A stretch of 63,008 nucleotides of DNA, the filler included, from Aduncisulcus paluster (Eukaryota): assembly GCA_024181965.1 (NCBI GenBank). It is 15 parts of 15 records of this genome, joined end to end, with 100 filler letters (N's around TTAATTAATTAA, not from the genome) between each part and the next. Parts side by side here need not be neighbours in the genome. Positions count along the whole stretch, not along the records: positions 9,135 to 16,018 come from BQXS01009659.1; 14 more parts are not named here. One strand, 5' to 3'. The notes under the pieces were generated by a model that was not told where the DNA came from, did no database searches, and saw nothing but the letters and a program-made list of their open reading frames with translations. Made by a program: the position numbers and the translations under genes. Each line of letters begins with the position of its first letter. Position 1 is the first letter of the stretch. Shown piece after piece: positions 5,054 through 18,649 of this stretch.

Positions 5054-6181
5054 TTATTTCCATGGAAGAAGAGATACTCGTTCAGCTGCAATGGTTTCCT
5101 CGGGCATAGTAAACATAAGGGAGTAGATTTCGAAAATTCGACTGTTCGTCTCATCCCACATTCCTTTCCCTTCAATCTCACACAATACAATATTATCCAA
5201 ATCAATAGGAAGGAAATGCCATTCGAATCTATGTTTAGGTTGTGTGAATTCATACTTCTTGAAGGTCTTCTTGCCATCACAATCAGTGAAGGTGAAGAGA
5301 AGAGTGGGTGAACTGTAATTCTTACGCACACAGATATAGGCACCTTTCATTGGACTAGGTGATGGGAAAGGGATGGAAAGATGGGATAAGCGAACACCAG
5401 ATTCCCCTTTTAACATTTTTTGTGCTTCTGAACTCTGATCATAAAACTTAGATTCCTTACAAAACGCATCATCCTTGCAATTAACCATTGAGAATGAAGG
5501 ATCTACAAGATGTGGATCATCTCGTGGAATGGGAATAGAATCTTCATCTCTACCAAACAGATTGATATTTCCTTCCTTAACAAACTCTGGTTTCACAACT
5601 GGAGCTTCAGACCATAGTTTCTCTCTGGCTTCACGATATTTGAGTTCTTCAGGGGTTTCTTCTCTACTAATGAAAACAAGGGAGGGGATTCTAAAATACT
5701 TTTCATATAGTCCTTTCCCTGTAATCTCACACAGAACAACATCAGGGAGATCAACAGGAAGGAAATACCAACGATCATCATAGGCTCCAAATCCAGGAAA
5801 CTCGTATTTCTTGGATGTTTTATCACCCTTTGAAGATGTGAGAGTGAAGATAAGGTGTGATGGAGGTGAGTCAGAAGGATAATAATTGCTTAGACAGATA
5901 TAAGCACCTTTCATAGGGGAAGATGAGGAGAAAGGAATGGAGATATGGGTATATTGTCCAGCATTGGTCTTACAGTCTCCTTTCATCATATCTTGTGCAT
6001 TAGAACTTTGATCGTACCCATATTTAGCTTCTTCCTCAGTTCCATCTATTGCTTTGATAGTTGGAAACTCTGCACTCTTAATATTGGGGGCATCTCCAGG
6101 AATTGGGCAGCAATCCCATTGTCCCTCAAGAACAACCTCAGGTTCCACAGTTTGAATAACAGCATCTGTGGATGAACTCAT
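5054..6181 (-). CDS. Hypothetical protein with two tandem copies of a ~180-aa beta-rich domain (lineage-expanded family)
   Basis: Both halves contain CPIP/SIPIP..YDQSS.AQ.M.KG..H.SIPF.S.SPMKGAYIC..FT.T...G.KT.KKYEF..W.FLP.DL...VLCEI.GKG. Confidence 0.85.
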   Translation of the reverse strand: MSSSTDAVIQTVEPEVVLEGQWDCCPIPGDAPNIKSAEFPTIKAIDGTEEEAKYGYDQSSNAQDMMKGDCKTNAGQYTHISIPFSSSSPMKGAYICLSNYYPSDSPPSHLIFTLTSSKGDKTSKKYEFPGFGAYDDRWYFLPVDLPDVVLCEITGKGLYEKYFRIPSLVFISREETPEELKYREAREKLWSEAPVVKPEFVKEGNINLFGRDEDSIPIPRDDPHLVDPSFSMVNCKDDAFCKESKFYDQSSEAQKMLKGESGVRLSHLSIPFPSPSPMKGAYICVRKNYSSPTLLFTFTDCDGKKTFKKYEFTQPKHRFEWHFLPIDLDNIVLCEIEGKGMWDETNSRIFEIYSLMFTMPEETIAAERVSLLPWK

Positions 6182-6591
6182 TTGAATTGAGATAGAATTT
6201 CTTATCTAAAAAAATATAAAAACAAGCAGAATAATGAATGAATCCGGTTAAAATATTTCTTAATCTACATTTAATAAAAGATATGGCATATAGTAAACAT
6301 ACAATTTGCTCGTTTGCCAAGAAAAAATGGACCATTGGCGCTCAGCCGCCAAAAGACTGAACAAGCAACCCTTCAATAGATAAGATTGGAAAATTAAAAA
6401 AATACATATAAACGAATTAAATGCTGGTAAATGATAAAAACATGTTTTATTTTCATTTCCATGCCATGGTGTTTATTCTCGATATCTCAGGCTTTTGGAG
6501 AACCCTCAGGACTGGATATAGTTCCATTTCACGTGTTAAGAACATTTATGAACGATTTCAATGCTATTCAATAACATGGATATATTTCCAT
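6150..6591. repeat. Gene start and upstream region shared with 33206-33646
   Basis: Long near-identical match seen directly. Confidence 0.9.
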
Positions 6592-6691
6592 NNNNNNNNN
6601 NNNNNNNNNNNNNNNNNNNNNNNNNNNNNNNNNNNTTAATTAATTAANNNNNNNNNNNNNNNNNNNNNNNNNNNNNNNNNNNNNNNNNNNN

Positions 6692-7709
6692 ATCATGGCT
6701 TCTTTTCAGACGTTTCCATCTTTTCTTCCATTCAGCTTTGGCATATGGCGTCAATTTTATGTTTTTAATCACTTCATCCGTGTCACGACGTTCCCAAAAT
6801 ACTTCATAGACACGTTTCTCTTGTGGCTTCCCTTCTTTATCAAACACATCATCATAGGCTGTACCTCTACCCTCAGCATTACTGGTTGTTATCATACTAT
6901 CAATTATCGCACAATATCTCAACATGGCACTCCGAAGTCTCTCATCATGATCGACTTTAGTGTCCAAACTTCTCACATTCAATTTCACTCCCAAATTCGC
7001 AAGATCATGGCGTCCAATCAACAATGGCAAATCAACTGGCAATACATCAACCAAATAATATTTAATTAAGCAACAATGTGGCGTAAATTTAGCTCTTTTT
7101 CCACAAGTCATTACAACAGTCTTCATTAAAATGGCTTCATGAGCAGTTTCACTTGCTCCACTTACAGTTTTGAAAATCAAAGGTGGCTTCACAGGTTTCA
7201 CAGGATATTCTTCCTGTTGTTTCTCCAAAAATAAATCTTCTCTCCAAATTCTGTCTTTATCCCTTAACCATTCACGAGAAATCAACGAAATGTCAGCTCC
7301 AGTATCCATCACAGCACGAACAGTTTTCTTCAGCTGCCTTGTCACATGAACGGTCACGTTCACGGCACCGGAGTCATCGTGGTTTCTTCCCGCAATCACA
7401 CATACCTTCAAGCCCTCAGAATCCGAAATCTCATCAGGTTCCACCGACCACGCCATTTTCATCGGGTCCAGTTTCTCCAGTTCTTTTGATTTCTTCATCT
7501 TTTCCATCTTATCAATCAAGGCTTGTTGGTTCTTCCTCAATAAACGCACATTCAACTTGGCTTTGGGTTCTGGCTTCGATACACTGCTACTGGCATTTGA
7601 TTTCGATGTCTCTGGTACATTGGCGTCTTTGTTTAACTTCAATGTGGCATTAGTGGCATTCAAATGTTCTTTAGAACTTTCAGAAGATTCCTCTTCATCC
7701 TTTTCTTTA
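6692..7709 (-). mobile_element. Retrotransposon gag-pol fragment with retropepsin domain, partial at both ends
   Basis: AVMDTGADISLIS and LLIGRHDL motifs in an ORF spanning the whole contig. Confidence 0.8.
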
Positions 7710-7809
7710 NNNNNNNNNNNNNNNNNNNNNNNNNNNNNNNNNNNNNNNNNNNNTTAATTAATTAANNNNNNNNNNNNNNNNNNNNNNNNNNNNNNNNNNN
7801 NNNNNNNNN

Positions 7810-8581
7810 TCATCTGTTCCAATACCTGATCCCCCTGTCTCTATGCTCTCCCCAAGACATATTCCCGATGAGTTTATCTTGAAAGCCCTCTTCTCTCTTT
7901 GTCAAAACATTGTCCCGTCACCCCCACCACAACCATCGTTCTTCAGACGTGCAGCCAATCTCTCTCCAGTTGGTCATGCATTCATTGCAAAAAGTTGCCG
8001 AAAAGGTGTTGTTACAGTGTCCTTTCTTTCTGAAGTCGCCCGGCTGGCATCTCAATGTGAGGTTAACACACCTCATTTACATCACTTTCCAACAAGAACC
8101 GATTTAATGGCATGGGAGAGAGAAAAAAACACGGCCTCGTGAAACGTCATTGAGAATTAGAGATGGAGAGAAGTCTTTTGACAGTACAGTGATGCATGTC
8201 GACAAGAATATATCAATTGGGTTCCTAAAAGAACTCCCTCGTGGGGAAGGTAAACATCACTTAAGAATAATAAGACTTGGGTTATGTGTTTATATGGCAT
8301 TGGATTATCGTTATCCAAAAGGATAACAGAAAGGCAGGAAATGAAGGATGTGAGGAGGTATTTTTTACGGGTAGCTGGATCAAACACACCGGTGGATGAG
8401 ATTAAAGATAGAATCCTCAGATTTCTTGTATTATAATATTAAACCCCACCACAGGGCAATGCCAAAAGTCCAAATATTGATTGGCATCATAGGGCGTGGC
8501 GGGATTTATTAAGGTTATGAAACTGATTAATTTATCAACTGATGGTGCGATATATATATATATATATATACTTCACTTCAC
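7810..8581. repeat. Reverse-complement duplicate of 9135-9912 (overlapping or allelic contigs), includes a (TA)n tract
   Basis: Identical ORF translations on opposite strands; the only difference noticed is (TA)n length. Confidence 0.9.
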
Positions 8582-10249
8582 CGCCAAGCTGACACCCAGT
8601 CTGATCATGTTTCATTAGCTCGAACTTCTTCATATACTGGCCATTCTCACCAAGACTCTACTGTCAGACCAAGCTCTTCAAGTGGCCAGATTTCTTCTAC
8701 ATTCCCATCTCAAGCCACATAGAACACCAATGAGACCCCTCTTATTCTTACAGTACGACTCCCAGAGTTCCTTCTTGATCATCCAAGTCCACCGGTGCCG
8801 CAAACATCGACTGAATTACCACTGATGGTCAGTGACTGAGGGTCACACAAAAGGATGGGGCATCTCAGGAAGTAGAACAACCTCCAAGAAAATTATTGTA
8901 TCATCTGTTTATGTTTGGGACAGCAGTATAACTAACAATCAAGGACAAAGACTCCAACACAGCACTATACTATACTTTTCCCAGGCACAAGGGGATTTAT
9001 ACATGAATATAGACATTAATCAATGTTTTATTCANNNNNNNNNNNNNNNNNNNNNNNNNNNNNNNNNNNNNNNNNNNNTTAATTAATTAANNNNNNNNNN
9101 NNNNNNNNNNNNNNNNNNNNNNNNNNNNNNNNNNGTGAAGTGAAGTATATATATATATATATATATATATATCGCACCATCAGTTGATAAATTAATCAGT
9201 TTCATAACCTTAATAAATCCCGCCACGCCCTATGATGCCAATCAATATTTGGACTTTTGGCATTGCCCTGTGGTGGGGTTTAATATTATAATACAAGAAA
9301 TCTGAGGATTCTATCTTTAATCTCATCCACCGGTGTGTTTGATCCAGCTACCCGTAAAAAATACCTCCTCACATCCTTCATTTCCTGCCTTTCTGTTATC
9401 CTTTTGGATAACGATAATCCAATGCCATATAAACACATAACCCAAGTCTTATTATTCTTAAGTGATGTTTACCTTCCCCACGAGGGAGTTCTTTTAGGAA
9501 CCCAATTGATATATTCTTGTCGACATGCATCACTGTACTGTCAAAAGACTTCTCTCCATCTCTAATTCTCAATGACGTTTCACGAGGCCGTGTTTTTTTC
9601 TCTCTCCCATGCCATTAAATCGGTTCTTGTTGGAAAGTGATGTAAATGAGGTGTGTTAACCTCACATTGAGATGCCAGCCGGGCGACTTCAGAAAGAAAG
9701 GACACTGTAACAACACCTTTTCGGCAACTTTTTGCAATGAATGCATGACCAACTGGAGAGAGATTGGCTGCACGTCTGAAGAACGATGGTTGTGGTGGGG
9801 GTGACGGGACAATGTTTTGACAAAGAGAGAAGAGGGCTTTCAAGATAAACTCATCGGGAATATGTCTTGGGGAGAGCATAGAGACAGGGGGATCAGGTAT
9901 TGGAACAGATGACATCGAAGATGATGAAGGTGTAGAGAGAAGGGGGGTGGGAGAGACAAGGTGATCACGGAGGTCAAGGGTACGATGGTTCTCTTATAAA
10001 ATGATATTGTAGTTGTTTTACTTTGACATGTGGGGTTTAATAGTTTAATAGAAAAAGAAAGAAATACAAAAGTGAAGCGATAACCTTCGCGTGAACACAC
10101 TCAATCCCCAGTTGAATGGCGATCATCACAAACAGATGGTAGATGGTTCAACCAGCAAAAGTTTTGACAGTCTAGCCCGTCGAGCTGTCAGTGACACCAA
10201 TAATATGCTTTTTTTCAAGTGAAACATGATTGATAATGTGGTTCATTAC

Positions 10250-10390
10250 GGATGGCAGACCCGCATCGGGAGGCATAATCCTTTTTAAACGTGATTTTTT
10301 CACAGAAAATGAGTTTTCTATCGGTGTAAGAAATGGACAATATGGTGGTAAGAAAATTGGGAGTATTCCGTTTTGTTTGTAGCCTCTCGT
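10250..10390 (-). pseudogene. IS630/Tc1-mariner DDE transposase C-terminal fragment
   Basis: IFLPPYCPFLTPIENSFSVKKSRLK matches the LPPYSPxLNPIExxWxxxK signature. Confidence 0.75.
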
Positions 10391-10391
10391 G

Positions 10392-11430
10392 TCATAACTT
10401 CCCATGAATCTCGGCACGTTTTTTTGCTTCCTCCACTCTCTTGAGATATCTTAAATCATGATGATATGAGCTAAATCCTTCCCAGAGTTGGATTACTCTC
10501 TCATCTCGGACAAGATCACCTTGTCGAAGAGCAACTAGTGGTAGGAATTTTCTGTGGTGGTGACCTTCCCACTTGACTGGTTCCTCTAGAACGTGGGGGA
10601 GTGATAATAGATGAAGCCTACTATTGAATACCCTTGAAGCTGCTTCTGTACTGCCTCTATATTTCCGAAAGAAATGGATAGCGAGACTCAAATAGTATTT
10701 GGAGGTCCCTTTCAACTCCATGTGCAAAAGATCGATCCCGAATTGCTCACATCCTTCACGAATCTGACATTTTTCTGCTTCAATCCATCCTTTTTTTGAT
10801 ACTTTGTTTCCAGTTGACAGGATTCCTGAGCAGAACACACAATTATTGGGGAAACTAGCTGTAAGCCCACTTAATTTCACCCTTTGAGGAGTATCAGCAG
10901 CAAAAGCAAAAACTTTTAGAAATATTTTTACCATCAATGTTCCTGTGTGTATGAGAAAAGGGAATCTTGTTGCATGTCTTATCTGATCTTGCATGATATC
11001 CCAGGCTGCCATTCCATCTTTGTCTTCTGATGAACATAATCCCCAGATCATGATGCTGTCTAGACCAGTTTCCCATAGATCTCTAACGTAAATTCCGCAT
11101 AGATCACTTAAAATTGACGTGGGTTCACGTATAAACTGGAAAGAATCACTCATCGTGTCATGGGTGGGAGTGCCTCAGATGCGATAACTGCAGAAACCAA
11201 CAGACCATTTAACATGGAACAAGGAGTGTGACCTCCAGCTATAGACCCCAGCAAAGGCTGCCCTTTGTGGGGAATTAGTCACTAAATGGTGCAAACCAAG
11301 CTGTATGCGAACTATTTTCCATTATTATTCCGCTCTCAAGTATCTTTGTCTCCTTGATTATAATCTTATCTGCAATCGTAGACTGATAGAAACACCATCG
11401 ACAAGCCAGATCAAAGGAAGCCAAAAATAC
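10392..11430 (-). pseudogene. CACTA/Plavaka-like DNA transposase remnant
   Basis: SDSF..GIYV, FAADTPQR..LSG...CVFC and IDLLHMELKG motifs; an upstream piece (ENSSHTAW) is separated by a stop. Confidence 0.65.
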
Positions 11431-11689
11431 CTAATATCAGAATAATTTGAAAAAAAAAGTTATGTAATTTTAGAAGTTTAGAAATAGATAATAATGTATA
11501 AAATGGGTGTTTGGAGGAGAAAAAGACAATTTTCAATTTCCTGTCTTTTCTTATTTCCTATTCTGAATATTGTATATACGCAGGTTCTATTGTGATAAGC
11601 ATTACCTTTTCCAACTTTGTACTCCCCTTCACCATTGGAAAACATAATCTTACCTTTAATCGTTTCTTTTCATCTGATACCCAATATTC

Positions 11690-12340
11690 AATCCTTCATG
11701 AACTGAAATCCCATCAGTCTGAACCACTGTCTTAACTGATTTTTTTTCCACTGAGGGGAATTTCCTATTAAACTGTGTCGTAAATTTACGTTCCAATGAC
11801 CTTCCCGTGGTCGAGAGATTGTATTGTGGATAAATATGGCGATCATCAAAGGAAAAATCACTACAGAGAAGGTCCTGAAAGAGCGGAAAGACAGTGGGAT
11901 CAGCTACCGAACGGAGTCGGTGAGAGGACGCAATAGTGGCCTTAAGAGGCAGAAAGTCGGAGACAAAGGGTGTTTAGTCCCGTATTTACACTTGATGAAT
12001 AACTGCCTTGCTTGAATGCCCGATTCCTGCCCATGTGAGCTCGTCCGGCATCACCGTAGGCAATCAGAAGTTTCTTTTTCTCTTGCACTGCCAGACGGGC
12101 CAAGACGCTCCCGAAACCCATAACAAAAGAATTTTTTCTAATAATGTTGCCGAATTTATGGCGTCTAAACACTGCGACTTCCCGTAATTTTGAAAGCGAA
12201 TCCCAATGGCGAAGGAGCTGCTTAAATCGGAGTTCATATCCTTTCAGCGAGTCATCCTTCACCATTGGGATTTTTTCATTTAGCTTGTTTATCTCCTTGA
12301 GTAGAGTTTGTTCTCTCATTTTCCCATTATTCTTCCTCTT
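11690..12340 (-). pseudogene. Fanzor1-like (eukaryotic TnpB-derived) nuclease fragments
   Basis: EINKLNEKIPMVKDDSLKGY...WDSLSKL....FRRHKFGNIIRK...KKLLIAYGDAG, then, after frameshifts, ...FNRKIP...VVQTDGISV (11721-11701). Catalytic RuvC motifs are absent. Confidence 0.55.
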
Positions 12341-12849
12341 TCTTCCTTTTTTAATTAAGAAGAAGTCAGTGTCGGAATCACTTGATTCAACATTATATTC
12401 GGGTTCAAGCATTTTTTCGTTAGCAAAAAACAGAAAAATTGTATCTAAATCGCCATCTTCAGCAGATAGTTCCCCTTTGAATGAACATAGTGGAGTAGAT
12501 GGTAGTGGCACGCAAATGGAGCTGTAGAAAGAGATCTTTGAATCAGAAAATCATGGGAACGACGTTGGTCTACTGGGGATGATAGGCTCAGGAAATTCAG
12601 GGAGTACAACCCCACGTTCACCTCTAGGGTAGCAAGCCCTTTCACAAGGAATAAGTGCTGATATTATACCCTTACGATCAAGATCTTCAATAGAAAGCAC
12701 CCTAAAGGTTTCAGTGGGATAGTCTCCCTGAATCTCAGCGACATAGAACTCTTTCCGACAGTTGGGGCATTTTTTATAAGGCAGGTCTAGGATGTAGGAA
12801 TACCTTGTCTTCCCAGACTGTGCATGGGTCATGAGAACTCTTCACTCCA

Positions 12850-13300
12850 AAAAAAATGGATGTTACCCAATCTTCGACGAACATGGAATGTTCACAAAGG
12901 AATAAGACAATATTAAGTATTTCACCTTTTTATGGTTTGACATACCATCGAGAAAAACTTGTATTCCTACGACAAGAACAGGAATGTGTGGCAGTGATAG
13001 TTCTTCTTCTAGTTCGTATAGAACTTCCACCATGTCTCTACATCCAAAAACTTCCCTAATCACGGAATGAATCCGTTCCAACGCTCGTCCAGATTCCAGA
13101 GAAGTATATTATTGTGAAATGCATCGACTGCCGCTACGGCGGAATGCTAGTAGCATTCTTTCATCGGTCATAGCTGAGATTCTTGTTTTTTCCAGCTGCT
13201 TCAGAAAGGATTTCCGATATGAATCAATGGATAACAAGCAATTTAGATGGGGACTCTTAAAATATTGGTTTACCGGAACCAATAATAACGCATCCTCTTC
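12850..13300 (-). pseudogene. Second CACTA/Plavaka-like transposase remnant (first catalytic Asp region)
   Basis: VVGIQVFLDGMSNHKKVKYLILSYSFVNIP resembles the hxhxhDG...hY....NLP motif; the region is frameshifted. Confidence 0.5.
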
Positions 13301-14009
13301 CTCCTTGGTCGTTTCGGACTGGTGAGATGACTTAATACCCACGTATTGGAAGCCACTCACATGTAATACGATTCGTAGTGCCCGTAACTCTTTCTTTTTT
13401 GCAATCTCTTTTGTAGAGCATTTCCAATATGTTTTTCGGAAAAAACTAAGGAGGTTAATTCGCTCCCAGACAACCTTCGAATCAGATTGAGAAATAAGAA
13501 AGGTATCGGAGAGCGAAAAGCGCATACATGACATCCAAGCGCTCCAGAAGCAAGAATCCCGCCGGGGAGAGGCCCCACTCGCAACATTTCTCCCTTTCAT
13601 TCCTCCTCTGAGTTTCCTGTTTAAGCAATGCCAGTTCTGCTCTAAGTTTTTGCAACTCTGATATCTCTGAGTCACCCGTGCCGCTAGGTTGTAGCACGGC
13701 AGCTCCAATCGTAGCAGTTTCTTGATGAACTGACAAACTCGAAGATTCCTCGGAAGACTTATCTGTTTCATTAACATGCATAATATTTAATGGGTATAAA
13801 ACGAACTTAACTCTCAACAAAAGCTAAAATAAGCACAAAACATGGATTCATTTCGTGTGACAGGAAAACCTGTTTTAAAAATCTGAAATAAATCTAATTA
13901 TGATATTATAATCAAAATATTCTTTAAAATTTATCTTTATAATATATAATAAGTCTTTTCCTAGCTGTGAAAAAGATCACACCCTAAATCCAGGCCAGAC
14001 ACAATACTT

Positions 14010-14321
14010 TTATACATAATTATTTGCATAAATATGGTATCTATAAAATTCATGATGTTGATGTACAGTAACAAGTGAAATGTCAGAATCAGAAGAAAAA
14101 TAGTATTTAAAGAATCGTTCTCTCAGTTCTTTTATCCATAATAGGATTGCTTCTTCTAGAAATCTCCACTTTCTACTCAATGGATACCGAGATTTACCAA
14201 CTCTGTCCTTCTTCTTCCTTCCCAAGTCGATAAACAATGTCAGTGATCGATCAATAGTCTTGACATCTTCACATCTCATCATTCTTATTGATGCAGCTCG
14301 TTGGGTTGTGGATGCACACAA
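14010..14321 (-). pseudogene. Possible tyrosine recombinase fragment (Crypton/DIRS-like)
   Basis: STTQRAASIRMMRCEDV...GRKKKDR resembles YR box I (TGxRxxEhxxLxxxD) plus the catalytic Lys; no HxxR/Y box seen. Confidence 0.35.
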
Positions 14322-14864
14322 TGCTTACAAACAATAAACGCTGAAATTTTAACAAATGAGAATCATGAACGTGAGAAGAAACAAGCATCAGATAATAGTA
14401 GTTAGTTTATTAAAAGAAAAGAAAAGAAAACCCCGTAAGGAAATAAAAGAATTTCTCTTAATATCTATCCCTGTTGGGAATCAGAAACGTGACACCCTAG
14501 GTGCTGGGGGATGAGAGGGAGAGAGACATATCCAATCTTTCTGTTACCAATCACCCCATTTCGCTTTCACCCACGAGGGGTACTTGAGGTTCATGGGGGA
14601 GGTAACAGGAAGATGGATAGCGGTCAAGGAGGCCGTGAGGCATTGTTAGAGGAAAGCGAGGGGAGTAGAGAAATAAAATAAATAAAACAAGTTACGCTTT
14701 CTCCAAATAAATTTGTCGACGCTTTAATATATCCTATAGGATATTATCCTATGTTAGCCACTACATAATTCTTTGTAACCGTTGCAGTCTTACTCAATTT
14801 GAAATTGTGAAAATTTATTATTTTGTTACTATCCGACGTCCTTGATTAAATTGTAATATAATAT

Positions 14865-15500
14865 TTATTCTATTTCATCAAGCAAAGAATGAAAAAGTAT
14901 GTTTGTAAGCGTTATTCCAGGATCTTGTGGAAGTATTATTTTGACTTGTTCTTTTCTTCTTACTCTTGATATCGCCGTGTAAAATTGACCATGATCCCAG
15001 CATAAAGAATCATATAAATCTATAATACATTCAGACTCAAACGTTTTCCCTTGAGATTTGTGAATTGTAATTCCGTATGCTAATATAAGTGGAAACTGCA
15101 TACGATGAAAGGTTCCGTGACTATTTTCGATAACAAATAGTTCTCTCTTAAGAACCCACTCTTCTTGAGTCGCAATCAATGAAACGATTATCCTATGATC
15201 TTGAATTTCTTTTACCACTGCTTCCGTTCCATTGCTCACGTTTTCGGCCACACATATATTTTTCGTAATCATTACCTTGGATCCGGGAGCGATTCTTAGA
15301 TTTTCAAGTGCATATCGTTGTGCCTTATTGATTTTATCACGGAGTTGACGGCTTCTTTCTCTAATAAGTCCAGAAGCTGAGACGTAATAATCTTCGGCTT
15401 CGAACTCTCGAATTTCCCCAGGAAATAATTTGTTGATGACGATATAGTTCCAAGTCTGAGATGATTCAAACAGCGGTGTTATTGTTATGGCCCAAAGATA
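14865..15500 (-). mobile_element. Helitron-type PIF1 helicase, C-terminal part, 5' truncated
   Basis: Frame is open from ~15500 (ITPLF..N..FPGE..APGSKVMITKNI...NGT), then RMQFPLILAYGITIHKSQGKT and HGQFYTAISRV. Confidence 0.88.
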
Positions 15501-15524
15501 TTATTTTGTACGATTAGCTTGTTA

Positions 15525-15582
15525 TAGTCTAATCGTTAAGGCGTCACCTTGGTGATTGCCTGGTTGTGGGTTCAAACCCCAC
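15525..15582 (+). promoter_or_regulatory. tRNA-derived A/B-box element (pseudo-tRNA) upstream of a gag ORF
   Basis: D-arm GTCT/AGGC and T-arm GTGGG-TTCAAAC-CCCAC at canonical tRNA spacing; acceptor and anticodon stems are unpaired. Confidence 0.6.
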
Positions 15583-15740
15583 CTTGTGTAATTTTATGAA
15601 AGTCTGTAAGGAAGACTACAGCCTTGTCATAAGAATGACGTGACAAGTATTGAAGAGAATAACATATTATAGTAAATTGTGCTCACCACAAGAATTTTAT
15701 TTTCCAGGAATATTACAAAATAGCTATTTTAGTTTTATTT

Positions 15741-16018
15741 ATGGAAGTTAAGGTTGTTTTACCAAGATTAGCCACCGTGGGACGGGAGGCTTGGAAAAAA
15801 TTTAAGGAACAATTCCTCAGTTATCAAAAACGAGATGAAGATGCTGAAATAAGGACGTATATGACTGATACAGTCTGGACGATCTATCAGGCTCGGACAG
15901 GTTTGGCAGATGGAGAGGATTCCGATGTCATTCTTGAGGAAATTGATAAATTATACGGAATTACGAACAGATTGACCTGTGTATACGCCTTGGAGGAATT
16001 TAAACTGAAAGGAATTAC
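15741..16018 (+). mobile_element. Probable retrotransposon Gag N-terminus, 3' partial
   Basis: WKKFKEQF..Y motif; ILEEIDKLYG...ALEEFKL aligns by eye with LKKLLDQKFG...ELDKLSL of the gag at 2-736. Confidence 0.55.
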
Positions 16019-17454
16019 NNNNNNNNNNNNNNNNNNNNNNNNNNNNNNNNNNNNNNNNNNNNTTAATTAATTAANNNNNNNNNNNNNNNNNNNNNNNNNN
16101 NNNNNNNNNNNNNNNNNNAAAAGAAATATTATTTAAGACATTAAGATACATATATCATATATTCACATAGCAAAACTCTTTTGATCTCATGAAACACAAT
16201 CATCATGAACAAAAATATTCACCACCAATATCAACAAATTCTTCAAACCTTTACACATTCAAGGTAAAATACACATGACAAGTCCAAACAAATACCAAAT
16301 ATATACATATTATATACACTTTATTAACAAATATATCATCCAAATGATCCAAAATTAATCACATCATATCGAACATGGAAAAACATAGCAATTTCATACA
16401 TATTATTGCTCAATTATAGATGTTTAGGTCAATAAAAGTCAAAACCAATGAGATATCCTACACAAAGTATAGGGTACTTATTGAGAAGAATTGGGTCTAA
16501 AAATAGCTCAGAACAACACAGCTTTCACAATGATGAAAAGTCACCTGGATGCTTGTAAAAACACAACTTTATCTCAGGGAAGCTATTTTTAGAACGAATT
16601 TTGCCCCTCCTTTAGAATACCACCAGAAGACAAGCTTCTCAAAAATATGTCCAAAAATAGAAAAAGCTCCAAAAACGCATTTTATGTTCCGGGGGGTCGC
16701 GCTAAAGTGCCGGACCCCCGGATACCATATATATGAGAGGGGGTGAAAAAAAAAAGTCACTTCAGCTGGTGAAAAATTCCAGTCTGAAATGTCACATTTT
16801 TTTTTGATCATCGCTTCTCACTAGGATTTCAATTATGCTTTTTGTCTTTCGGGTGTAAATCCGCAAAAATTTTTTTTTTGTCTCAGAAAGGCGACTTCAA
16901 GATTTTTTTGGCCTGTGCATTGTGAAAAGTGAGTAATCGCTTTTACACAGTGGGACGCCTCCAAAAAAAGATGTGTGAGTGTGTTTTTGTGTCTTCACGA
17001 AATGCGCTTGCATGTAAACAAAATCCATTTTATTGTGATGAACTCTTTGAGTTTAGCATACTTTTGTAGCTCTCTGTGTAAGATGAATTATTTTTACGAG
17101 GCTTTGGCAACAAAGTAGTAGTCTGAATACTTTTCATTGTGTCCGCAAGGACGCAGAGAAATCATAACATAAATGATTTTACCCTTCTGTAGAAAATATT
17201 CGTTATCCTTTCTGCCTATTTTTAAGGTGGTGAAGGACTCATGAAGTACTATAAGGTCGGCTTAAACCTGTATTCAATGTGCCTGGGATGCCCAGGGGTT
17301 GGGGTTTGGGGCAGTGTATATATGTAAGAACCTGTACTAATCATGAATTGTCTCNNNNNNNNNNNNNNNNNNNNNNNNNNNNNNNNNNNNNNNNNNNNTT
17401 AATTAATTAANNNNNNNNNNNNNNNNNNNNNNNNNNNNNNNNNNNNNNNNNNNN

Positions 17455-18549
17455 ATTGGAGGGAAGACCATTCTTTGAAATTCAATACCCTACTGACCCT
17501 AAACCTGGAAGAAGATCCGCGCCGGAGGAGGCCGAGACACTTTTGAAAGAAGGCAGCCTGGATAACTTGTCTCGCGTTATGGGCCCCGATCTACTGAAAG
17601 GAATGGAGAAGATGGTGGAACTAAAAGACCAGATCACACCCGAAGATATTAAGAAATTTTCCATAGTCTGTGCAAAGGAAACAAGTAATCCAGTAAACCC
17701 AGATGATGATTACCAGAAGCTTGTAATAGCTTATTCAAATATATGGAAGACCTTTTCGAAGACCTGGACGAAACACCAGCAGCCGTTGAACCCTTTCGAG
17801 TGGAACTCGTCGATGAAACCCGCTGTGTTGCAGAGCAATACAGGCAAATCCGTAGGGACTGGAAAGATGAAATCCAAGAACAACTGATAAAAATGGAAGA
17901 AAAGGAGTAATCAGAATATCCCAAAGTTCATACCATTGTGCAACAGTGATACAACCCAAGAAAAACGGAAAACTCAGATTATGTGTCGACTACAGACCCA
18001 TAAACGAAATAACCAGAGGAGTGGGGCAGGTCCTGCCACGGATAAGTGATTTATTTGCGGCGATGAATAACATGAAATATTTTGCTGTTCTGGATCTCAC
18101 CTCAGGATACCATCAAATCAGTGTGCATGAAGATAGCATAAAATATACCAGTTTCGTGACGCAGTACGGACAATATGAATACACCAGAATGCCATTCGGC
18201 ATGAAGAACGCGCCGCCGTTCTTTCAGGCAACAATGAACCGAATCTTAACCGGTCTAGTGAACACCATTTGCTGCGTATACCTTGACGACATAGTCGTTT
18301 TTGGAAAAACCATGATGGGTTTATTAATCCATTTATTAGCCGTATTCATGAGGCTAGACAAGTACAACATGAAGGTAAATCTTGAGAAAACCATCGTGGG
18401 AGCAGAAGAAGTCGAGTTCCTAGGATTTAGAATCTCTGGTCTAGGAATTAGACGCTGCCCGAAGAAACTCGCAGTATTAAAAAGAATGAAAGTATTGAAA
18501 ACCAAGAAAGACCTTAGAAGCTTTATAGGCTCAGTGACATACCTTAAAG
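17455..18549 (+). mobile_element. Ty3/gypsy reverse transcriptase, partial, two frameshifts (~17740 and ~17900)
   Basis: KKNGKLRLCVDYR, LDLTSGYHQI, RMPFGMKNAP and YLDD motifs; the intervening frame reads EDLFEDLDETPAAVEPFRVEL...EQLIKMEEK/GVIRIS. Confidence 0.95.
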
Positions 18550-18649
18550 NNNNNNNNNNNNNNNNNNNNNNNNNNNNNNNNNNNNNNNNNNNNTTAATTA
18601 ATTAANNNNNNNNNNNNNNNNNNNNNNNNNNNNNNNNNNNNNNNNNNNN

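Follow-up and report, generated by a model that had tools for sequence, protein, structure and literature searches.

In Spizellomyces punctatus the Fanzor1 protein SpuFz1 is carried by Spu-1 elements, which are accompanied by ghost loci (Saito et al. 2023, PMC10432273; PDB 8GKH). According to the passages of that paper drawn on here, a single ORF of about 630 aa lies in a non-autonomous element of about 2-2.6 kb with inverted ends and without a transposase, a 3' ncRNA overlaps the right end, and the ghosts keep both ends and the RNA. The same architecture, with a predicted RNA, was found by us in the free-living fornicate Aduncisulcus paluster, in elements designated family A in this study. 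SpuFz1 elements are characterized by conserved 30-nt repeats, a fixed CA upstream and the TAM CATA, whereas in family A the ends are imperfect, the target duplications of 9-10 bp are variable, an intron of 96 nt is predicted behind the start codon, and no motif is conserved upstream. The DNA from which our analysis started, a piece of one contig within a stretch of 63,008 nucleotides (in the following the window), is unlike SpuFz1 a dead fragment only.

Transposase-less Fanzor1 elements with inverted ends and 9-bp duplications, as in family A, have been described as ROr-4, PBl-3 as well as MCi-4 (Bao and Jurka 2013, PMC3627910). As far as the relevant parts of that paper go, these elements come from Mucorales fungi and their ends were matched to confirmed MuDR elements. 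Family A differs from them by its fornicate host, and no matching autonomous partner was found for it. PpFz1 and GtFz1 (Xu et al. 2024, PMC11423790; PDB 9CF0, 9CER) share the RuvC/TNB fold with family A, in which, as a difference from them, no FRI-like insertion was seen. In the sections of PMC11423790 concerned with the RNA, the omegaRNAs of PpFz1 and SpuFz1 form two stem-loops in front of the guide, as is predicted for family A, and like both of them the predicted family A RNA contains no pseudoknot. Stem 1 comprises 7 bp in all three structures, compared to 9 predicted pairs with a bulge in family A.

Fanzor1 proteins of A. paluster have been tabulated before. The tree table of Saito et al. 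(PMC10432273) lists GKT27103.1, GKT24803.1 and GKT28741.1 as FZ1 of this species, and we found these sequences to match ORFs of family A (contig C12704) and of a further family, B (C12547 and C459). The entries are partial or mis-fused gene models standing as tips of the tree; the rows and passages of that paper considered here contain neither the family of our relic (family D) nor full-length copies, ends, ghosts or RNA of family A. The other two surveys of 2023 (PMC10711439 and PMC10530073) do not list A. paluster in their supplements, and no paper joining Fanzor with Aduncisulcus, Metamonada or Fornicata was among the matches listed. A published account of Fanzor elements, ghosts or RNA of A. 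paluster was not found, Repbase, bioRxiv supplements and the scanned supplement of PMC10432273 being outside the scope of this search. While the Fanzor1 proteins of the species were already known in 2023, the family A elements, their ghosts and the candidate RNA were seen in no source within this scope and are seemingly new.

A dead Fanzor1 fragment in a patchwork contig

The window is an artificial concatenation of contigs with spacers of the form N44-TTAATTAATTAA-N44, and neighbours across a spacer are not neighbours in the genome. The assembly (genome G000) is very fragmented, comprising 23,235 contigs. Contig C9659 (6,884 bp, window 9135-16018) is a patchwork of multi-copy fragments and consists of repeats nearly throughout, with 57 matches in its own genome that end sharply at staggered positions. 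At 11985..12347 on the minus strand it contains a fragment of the Fanzor1 family D with a K/R-rich linker, the helical REC2/bridge region, the FRRHKF helix and the YGD pseudo-RuvC-II; the 3' limit at about 11985 is approximate and was set by the likeness to family C in the alignment. The minus-strand ORF 12550-11942 encodes ...INKLNEKIPMVKDDSLKGYELRFKQLLRHWDSL...FRRHKFGNIIRK...KKLLIAYGDAG. Its YGD motif (12050..12058, minus strand), with Gly at the canonical RuvC-II Glu position, aligns with the YGD of the intact families A, B and C.

A reading of the sequence alone had proposed a Fanzor1-like nuclease here, from the YGD peptide at 12058-12050 and a second peptide, QTDGISV, at 11721-11701. Both peptides are present at these places, and the profile search bears out the Fanzor1-like identity of the first. 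Against a profile of 16 foreign homologues, this genome's own proteins left out, the YGD peptide reached an E value of 7.6e-9, compared to 1.1 for the next best among 691 frames of the window; hhalign against six full-length foreign homologues gave E 1.7e-4. Pfam and NCBIfam scans of both window peptides matched no family.

Copies of the family D piece with a DNA identity of 87-90% were found in C9964, C12161, C12357 and C12458, the matches starting at 12347 in three of them. TDG-DPG, the alternative Glu, the zinc finger and the RuvC-III RD are all absent from the window copy, which agrees with the earlier view that the copy is dead. A 3' omegaRNA at the element end was not found for the relic either, the DNA behind YGD being made up of other repeats, and the end pattern of family A has no match in C9659. 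In the sister copy of C9964 TDG, DPG and YGD stand in normal order, with a stop after DPG. A C-terminal half of family D was not found in the genome, none of the 19 PF07282 matches being attached to a family D copy, and neither was an intact copy of this family. Judged by its sequence, the YGD piece is the relic of a dead Fanzor1 gene, a non-functional middle fragment, and the flagged stretch is ordinary debris.

Helitron, Mariner/IS630 and EnSpm elements had all been supposed to occur in this contig, which holds in part. A Plavaka/EnSpm-like transposase fragment at 10392..11174 (minus strand) was recognized by atlas feature matches and has copies of 97-98% identity in C12096 and C9972. Its feature scores, 0.94 against clusters in which 19-24% of the members carry Plavaka and 0.92 against a Transposase_21 cluster, are a lead only; a Pfam scan of the fragment gave no match. 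The C-terminal part of a RecD/PIF1-type helicase at 14865..15500 on the minus strand (NCBIfam RecD2 E 1.2e-8, under the cut-off; Pfam UvrD_C_2 E 0.016) is presumably Helitron-like, as we assume from its motifs, but a motif scan of the contig detected no Helitron Rep motif, and of IS630 only a tail of about 35 nt is present. Upstream of the Fanzor piece, repeat scraps common to C9964 and C7738 occupy 12437-12564 and 12604-13289 (together 12437..13289, minus strand).

Short contigs of the window further contain scraps of LTR retrotransposons (protease, gag-like and reverse transcriptase; 718-1284, 6644-7753, 15663-16070 and 17871-18605), with matches to RVT_1 (E 2.7e-32) and RVP (E 7.9e-5). Two contigs next to each other contain a short repeat ORF (SSVPIPDPP...), at 7810-8142 on the plus and at 9580-9912 on the minus strand, which recurs in many further contigs.

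Origin of the unusual motif order

The position of TDG behind YGD had been interpreted as a permuted order within one Fanzor1 gene. A second minus-strand frame, 11973-11656, indeed holds FLPLK...VADPTVF as well as QTDGISV. However, four different repeats meet here, with sharp borders at 11842 and 11701 and a further one near 11980, and the peptides belong to three different repeats.

The piece next to the Fanzor fragment, at 11843..11976 on the minus strand, is the N-terminal piece of a tyrosine-recombinase-like (YR) protein and not Fanzor. In C9964 its 'FLPL...VADP..F' peptide shares its reading frame, interrupted by one TAA, with a YR catalytic domain (NCBIfam XerA-like E 1.1e-4, Pfam Phage_integrase E 0.007, both under the cut-off), and it scores below zero against Fanzor WED profiles, so that its former assignment to Fanzor has to be given up. 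At this locus (L067, C9964 2407-1127, minus strand) the YR-like domain is followed by an in-frame segment which we take from its motif to be SET-like, beside gag-like and Plavaka-like scraps.

Piece E (11702..11842, minus strand) ends in QTDGISV and is a separate repeat, 98-99% identical to C10217 and C12096, where other sequence lies upstream. Against the WED profile it scored 7.1 bits; none of 300 full shuffles scored as high, compared to 12 of 300 shuffles keeping TDG, and the hhalign probability was 1%. A search of its own genome yielded only four near-identical places, and no homologues were detected by atlas, hhalign or a longer-protein search. Piece E is possibly the WED region of another Fanzor family; as a Fanzor TDG the QTDGISV peptide is present as proposed, but only borderline WED-like. 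The last piece, 11667..11701 on the minus strand, is the C-terminal tail of an IS630/mariner-type transposase and is 97% identical to the corresponding part of the DDE ORFs of C8665 and C1278. A related IS630-type ORF in C10217 matches Pfam DDE_3 with E 3.4e-9.

These observations are very probably best explained jointly by a patchwork of unrelated repeats around a dead Fanzor1 fragment and an intact-looking sister system, family A, elsewhere in the genome. The order appears permuted because scraps of unrelated mobile elements are stitched behind the Fanzor piece. It is scarcely credible that both peptides derive from one gene with swapped halves, which is the reading that the same strand, the distance of 330 nt from YGD downstream to TDG and the borderline score of piece E might suggest: the TDG segment is unlike the TDG region of family D itself (SIHTDGISTRTL in C9964), other contigs carry it without an adjoining YGD piece, a recombinase fragment separates the two motifs, the sister copy has the normal order, and the catalytic residues are all missing. 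As to how the pieces came together, C12161 matches window 12087-11842 with 3 mismatches and one gap (window 12295-12090 is only 87.5% identical to it), C10217 matches 11842-11460 at 99%, and these two contigs overlap end to end by 32 nt. The simplest reading, which rests on this contig-end overlap, is that the 11842 junction arose when about 1.6 kb (~1,635 bp) were deleted from within a longer patchwork, in which the Fanzor piece would have been followed by the YR piece, an IS630 gene, the TDG piece and the IS630 tail, in this order. Such a deletion would have brought TDG behind YGD.

Alternatively it might be that the 11842 junction, and others, are assembly chimeras of repeats and not cellular DNA, in which case there would be no permutation either way. 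The fragmentation of the assembly and the repeat content of the contig speak for this, as does the detection of the 11842 junction in C9659 only. We consider it unlikely, as the Fanzor-to-YR junction and the E-to-IS630 junction are each common to three contigs and at least these were therefore copied as units. The recurrence of the Fanzor-to-YR junction would also be expected if family D had been carried by a tyrosine-recombinase (Crypton-like) element of which this adjacency is a remnant, and Crypton-Fanzor associations are reported in parts of PMC10530073 and PMC13565253. This origin seems very unlikely to us: the junction cuts Fanzor before the catalytic Glu with no omegaRNA left between the genes, C9964 mixes in Plavaka-like, SET-like and gag-like scraps as well, and no intact element was found.

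Fanzor families of A. paluster

Protein searches detected 16 and 33 Fanzor-like places in the genome and PF07282 detected 19. They were sorted by eye into the families A, B, C and D and a further PE(Y/F)RTS group. Families A and D are about 27-30% identical and represent sister families. Two full open frames of family A (C12276 and C12577) and several partial ones were found, most copies being truncated. The sequence-only reading had supposed that the genome has or had an intact, divergent Fanzor family with its own omegaRNA, and had proposed a search for full-length copies. With intact-looking ORFs and a candidate RNA this supposition is borne out by family A, but as a sister family, the relic's own family not having been found intact.

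After removal of the intron, the family A ORF of C12276 is predicted to encode 631 aa, with TDG at 313, DPG at 367, YGD at 501, DEY at 547, CPYC at 555 and RD at 584. The Glu is located six residues before the first CxxC of the zinc finger, and Gly occupies the canonical RuvC-II site. DPG together with a Glu six residues before the zinc finger is given as a Fanzor fingerprint in passages of PMC10711439, and TDG in WED with Gly at the canonical site in passages of PMC10530073. The predicted 96-nt GT-AG intron lies after the start codon; its prediction is based on the GTATGT donor and a length in common with a neighbouring host intron, on a like-placed donor in family C and on gene model P0004, which starts with MKRRHH. 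The ORFs of C12276 and C12577 differ by 83 changes over 613 codons, 36 of them synonymous and about 47 non-synonymous, which, roughly counted, gives a pN/pS of about 0.39 (p 4e-5, binomial). By this pattern of changes both full ORFs are apparently under purifying selection.

Family A matched Pfam Cas12f1-like_TNB over the cut-off. A profile in which 5 sequences of this genome were combined with 14 foreign ones (19 in all) found SpuFz1 (E 8e-27), PpFz1 (3e-21) and GtFz1 (1e-13) ahead of TnpB/Cas12f. With a profile from the own genome only, weak TnpB/Cas12f matches and no Fanzor1 structure were among the matches listed. A PDB search with the single family A sequence yielded nothing relevant, and word-indexed homologue searches returned only A. 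paluster proteins, or four short TnpB-like proteins. The AlphaFold model has a mean pLDDT of 53 and about 90 in the RuvC core; its N-terminal half is unreliable and its RuvC/zinc-finger half reliable. Foldseek matched the model to AsCas12f, PpFz1 and SpuFz1. By VIA, the values were Z 12.7 for AsCas12f (rmsd 4.7, 198 aligned), 11.7 for Fanzor2 (rmsd 5.0, 202) and 11.3 for TnpB; GtFz1 (Z 7.4, rmsd 5.4, 201) ranked below AsCas12f and Fanzor2. The predicted fold confirms the superfamily of family A, not the subfamily, and the assignment to Fanzor1 leans on the motifs, transitive homology and the table of 2023.

The PE(Y/F)RTS group, of which only tails were found, is Fanzor-like with CIGDG and PE(Y/F)RTS and an altered first zinc-finger pair (SYCC/SFCC); its loci are L146 (C11001, 4861-4379, minus strand), L104-L110 and L004 (1477-2079). 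Another DPG-bearing Fanzor-like fragment at L005 (C12458, 2133-3026) has SDG instead of TDG and is fused to a family B-like N-terminal piece.

Ends, target duplications and ghosts of family A

Seven ORF-bearing copies of family A stop at the same base about 115 nt past the stop codon and are followed by unrelated flanks; at nine further places only the last 80-100 nt of the element are present. The right end is sharp, with variable flanks at 17 distinct right ends. Left and right end form an imperfect inverted repeat of about 36 bp, in which 12 of the first 19 positions match; in MuDR/MULE elements, terminal inverted repeats with G...C termini would be expected. A pattern spanning both ends gave 40 matches, compared to 0 for the reversed control. 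Ten elements have both ends on one contig. Six of these are flanked by an exact 9-10 bp duplication and one by a duplication with one mismatch; one has a damaged end with a partial match, and two lack a duplication. The duplications are variable and AT-rich, the insertion sites being T-rich inside the duplication.

Target duplications of MuDR/MULE elements range from 9 to 11 bp, and those of family A (six exact and one near, n=10) fall within this size range. Ends and duplications point to a MuDR-like carrier. The carriage by Helitron, Mariner or EnSpm elements that had been assumed does not apply to the intact family, which exhibits none of their hallmarks. A MULE transposase was not found inside family A elements, nor was an autonomous MULE partner with matching ends, in a search that scored the best candidates only. 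Empty target sites were not detected among the loci examined, and for family C neither left end nor duplication was found.

The most complete family A copy, of about 2.6 kb, is split between two contigs, C12141 containing the left part and C12276 the gene together with the right end. We regard these as one copy because an exact 9-bp duplication, the contig-end overlap and a private 6-nt insertion are all common to them. For C13842 and C12577, which have an exact 10-mer in common, this is only possible, as C13842 continues on its own. C12272 and C12704 are not claimed as one copy; pairing by a one-mismatch duplication also fits 3 non-cognate pairs of 288.

In six gene-less ghosts, 1.0-1.2 kb long, about 140 nt of the left end are retained together with the last 100 nt. 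Another ghost of 0.54 kb is a plain internal deletion, and its joint recurs in a contig of DNA run X1. Inside the ghosts L080-L087 lies a common filler, richer in GC and containing blocks repeated in tandem, which has no relation to the Fanzor ORF and is inverted beside a short right end in C12625. At L082/L125 (C12483) and L087/L122 (C12513) the flank past the right duplication resembles the left-end terminus (GAAGA, GATG), and these ends may have formed with microhomology. L171 (C12521) and L172 (C12504) are left ends that lack a right end. A second copy of the upstream flank lies 727 bp downstream in C12521, and a different terminus, at a distance of 1,367 bp, is closed by a 9-bp duplication in C12504.

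At L064 (C12577, 45-535) and L041 (C12687) family A elements contain a fragment of 491 bp from a multi-copy family of host genes, which in C12577 takes the place of the first exon and leaves an in-frame ATG. This gene family also occurs at 5054-6205 of the window. The sole PF10551 match is an 809-aa MULE-SWIM frame between host genes (L145, C9722, 7461-5035, minus strand); no matching or evident inverted ends were found within 10 kb of it, and it is possibly a domesticated transposase.

Candidate omegaRNA

Alignment of the 3' flanks, as had been suggested for detecting an omegaRNA, revealed a common 3' end of family A followed by variable flank. The last 84 nt are predicted to form two stems, the second of which closes at the last base of the element, with a fold z of -3.6 to -3.7 (0 of 200 shuffles). 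Family C ends in another sequence, which in one copy folds on this two-stem plan (z -4.4) and in another folds no better than shuffles (z -1.2), and the 3' region of family B showed no fold (z +1.2). The covariation in 11 family A ends was equalled by 352 of 500 shuffles, the copies being too alike to give a signal above shuffles. Rfam yielded one chance match (E 0.83) on three loci. The gene-less ghosts keep the predicted two-stem RNA, the 100 nt retained at their 3' end beginning immediately ahead of stem 1.

In run X2, which is only guessed to be RNA, contigs span the intron of the adjacent host gene and extend over most of the Fanzor ORF; one of these contigs includes the 5' junction that only C12577 has. 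They are a hint of family A transcription. Positions 5336-5396 of L063 were uncovered in this run, and no contig joined the two sides of the predicted Fanzor intron, from which we draw no conclusion. We regard the predicted two-stem RNA at the 3' end of family A as a candidate omegaRNA.

Possible mode of action of family A and the TAM

By analogy with the Fanzor1/TnpB scheme (in the relevant parts of PMC10432273 and section 6.2 of PMC13565253), the family A protein would load the 3' RNA with about 15 nt of flank as guide. The RNP would cut the element-free site, leading to copying-back of the element and favouring its retention, and the element itself would be moved in trans by a 9-bp-duplicating (MuDR-type) transposase. 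In the published scheme, as presented in PMC13565253, the omegaRNA scaffold includes the 3' duplication, and the TAM includes the 5' duplication. Combined with a variable duplication of 9-10 bp, this scheme would have the filled right junction present both TAM and target and result in self-cutting at every filled site. Section 6.2 of this review of 2026 places the duplication in the scaffold in reported structures, describes the duplications of MuDR and hAT as variable, and contains no account of how Fanzors handle variable duplications. In family A the guide might start at the element boundary, with the duplication as its first 9-10 nt, and the TAM would then be loose, lying in a nearly unconstrained upstream flank, with exclusion of the right-end terminus of the element itself as its sole requirement. 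In a TAM search upstream of 18 left ends no position exceeded 0.62 bits outside the duplication; a faint purine bias was seen upstream of the duplications (15 of 18 sites at position -14). A rival to the loose TAM is a nuclease which acts at few sites only or is no longer active.

Taken as a whole, the proposal that family A is an active Fanzor1 breaking the published duplication rule, a nuclease nearly free of a TAM and served by genome-wide ghost guides, is a reading to which we give a small chance. That family A is a recently dead passenger, its elements moving in trans, its 3' hairpins being a transposase-binding end and no guided cutting taking place, is a serious possibility at somewhat less than even chances. 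The second stem partly coincides with the inverted end, so that the folding could be a by-product, and most copies are truncated; the lack of a conserved TAM upstream of the duplications and of a covariation signal points in the same direction. Yet the catalytic motifs are all intact in two ORFs that are apparently under purifying selection, the ghosts keep their 3' 100 nt, well past the 36-bp end, and family C keeps the two-stem plan, clearly in one copy, with a different sequence.

With an ORF, both ends, duplications, a candidate omegaRNA and ghosts, family A is a fully delimited candidate system, which suffices for the design of a TAM screen. An answer to the question of variable duplications would indicate how RNA-guided nucleases adapt to new transposons, and might possibly provide a compact editor with a loose TAM.
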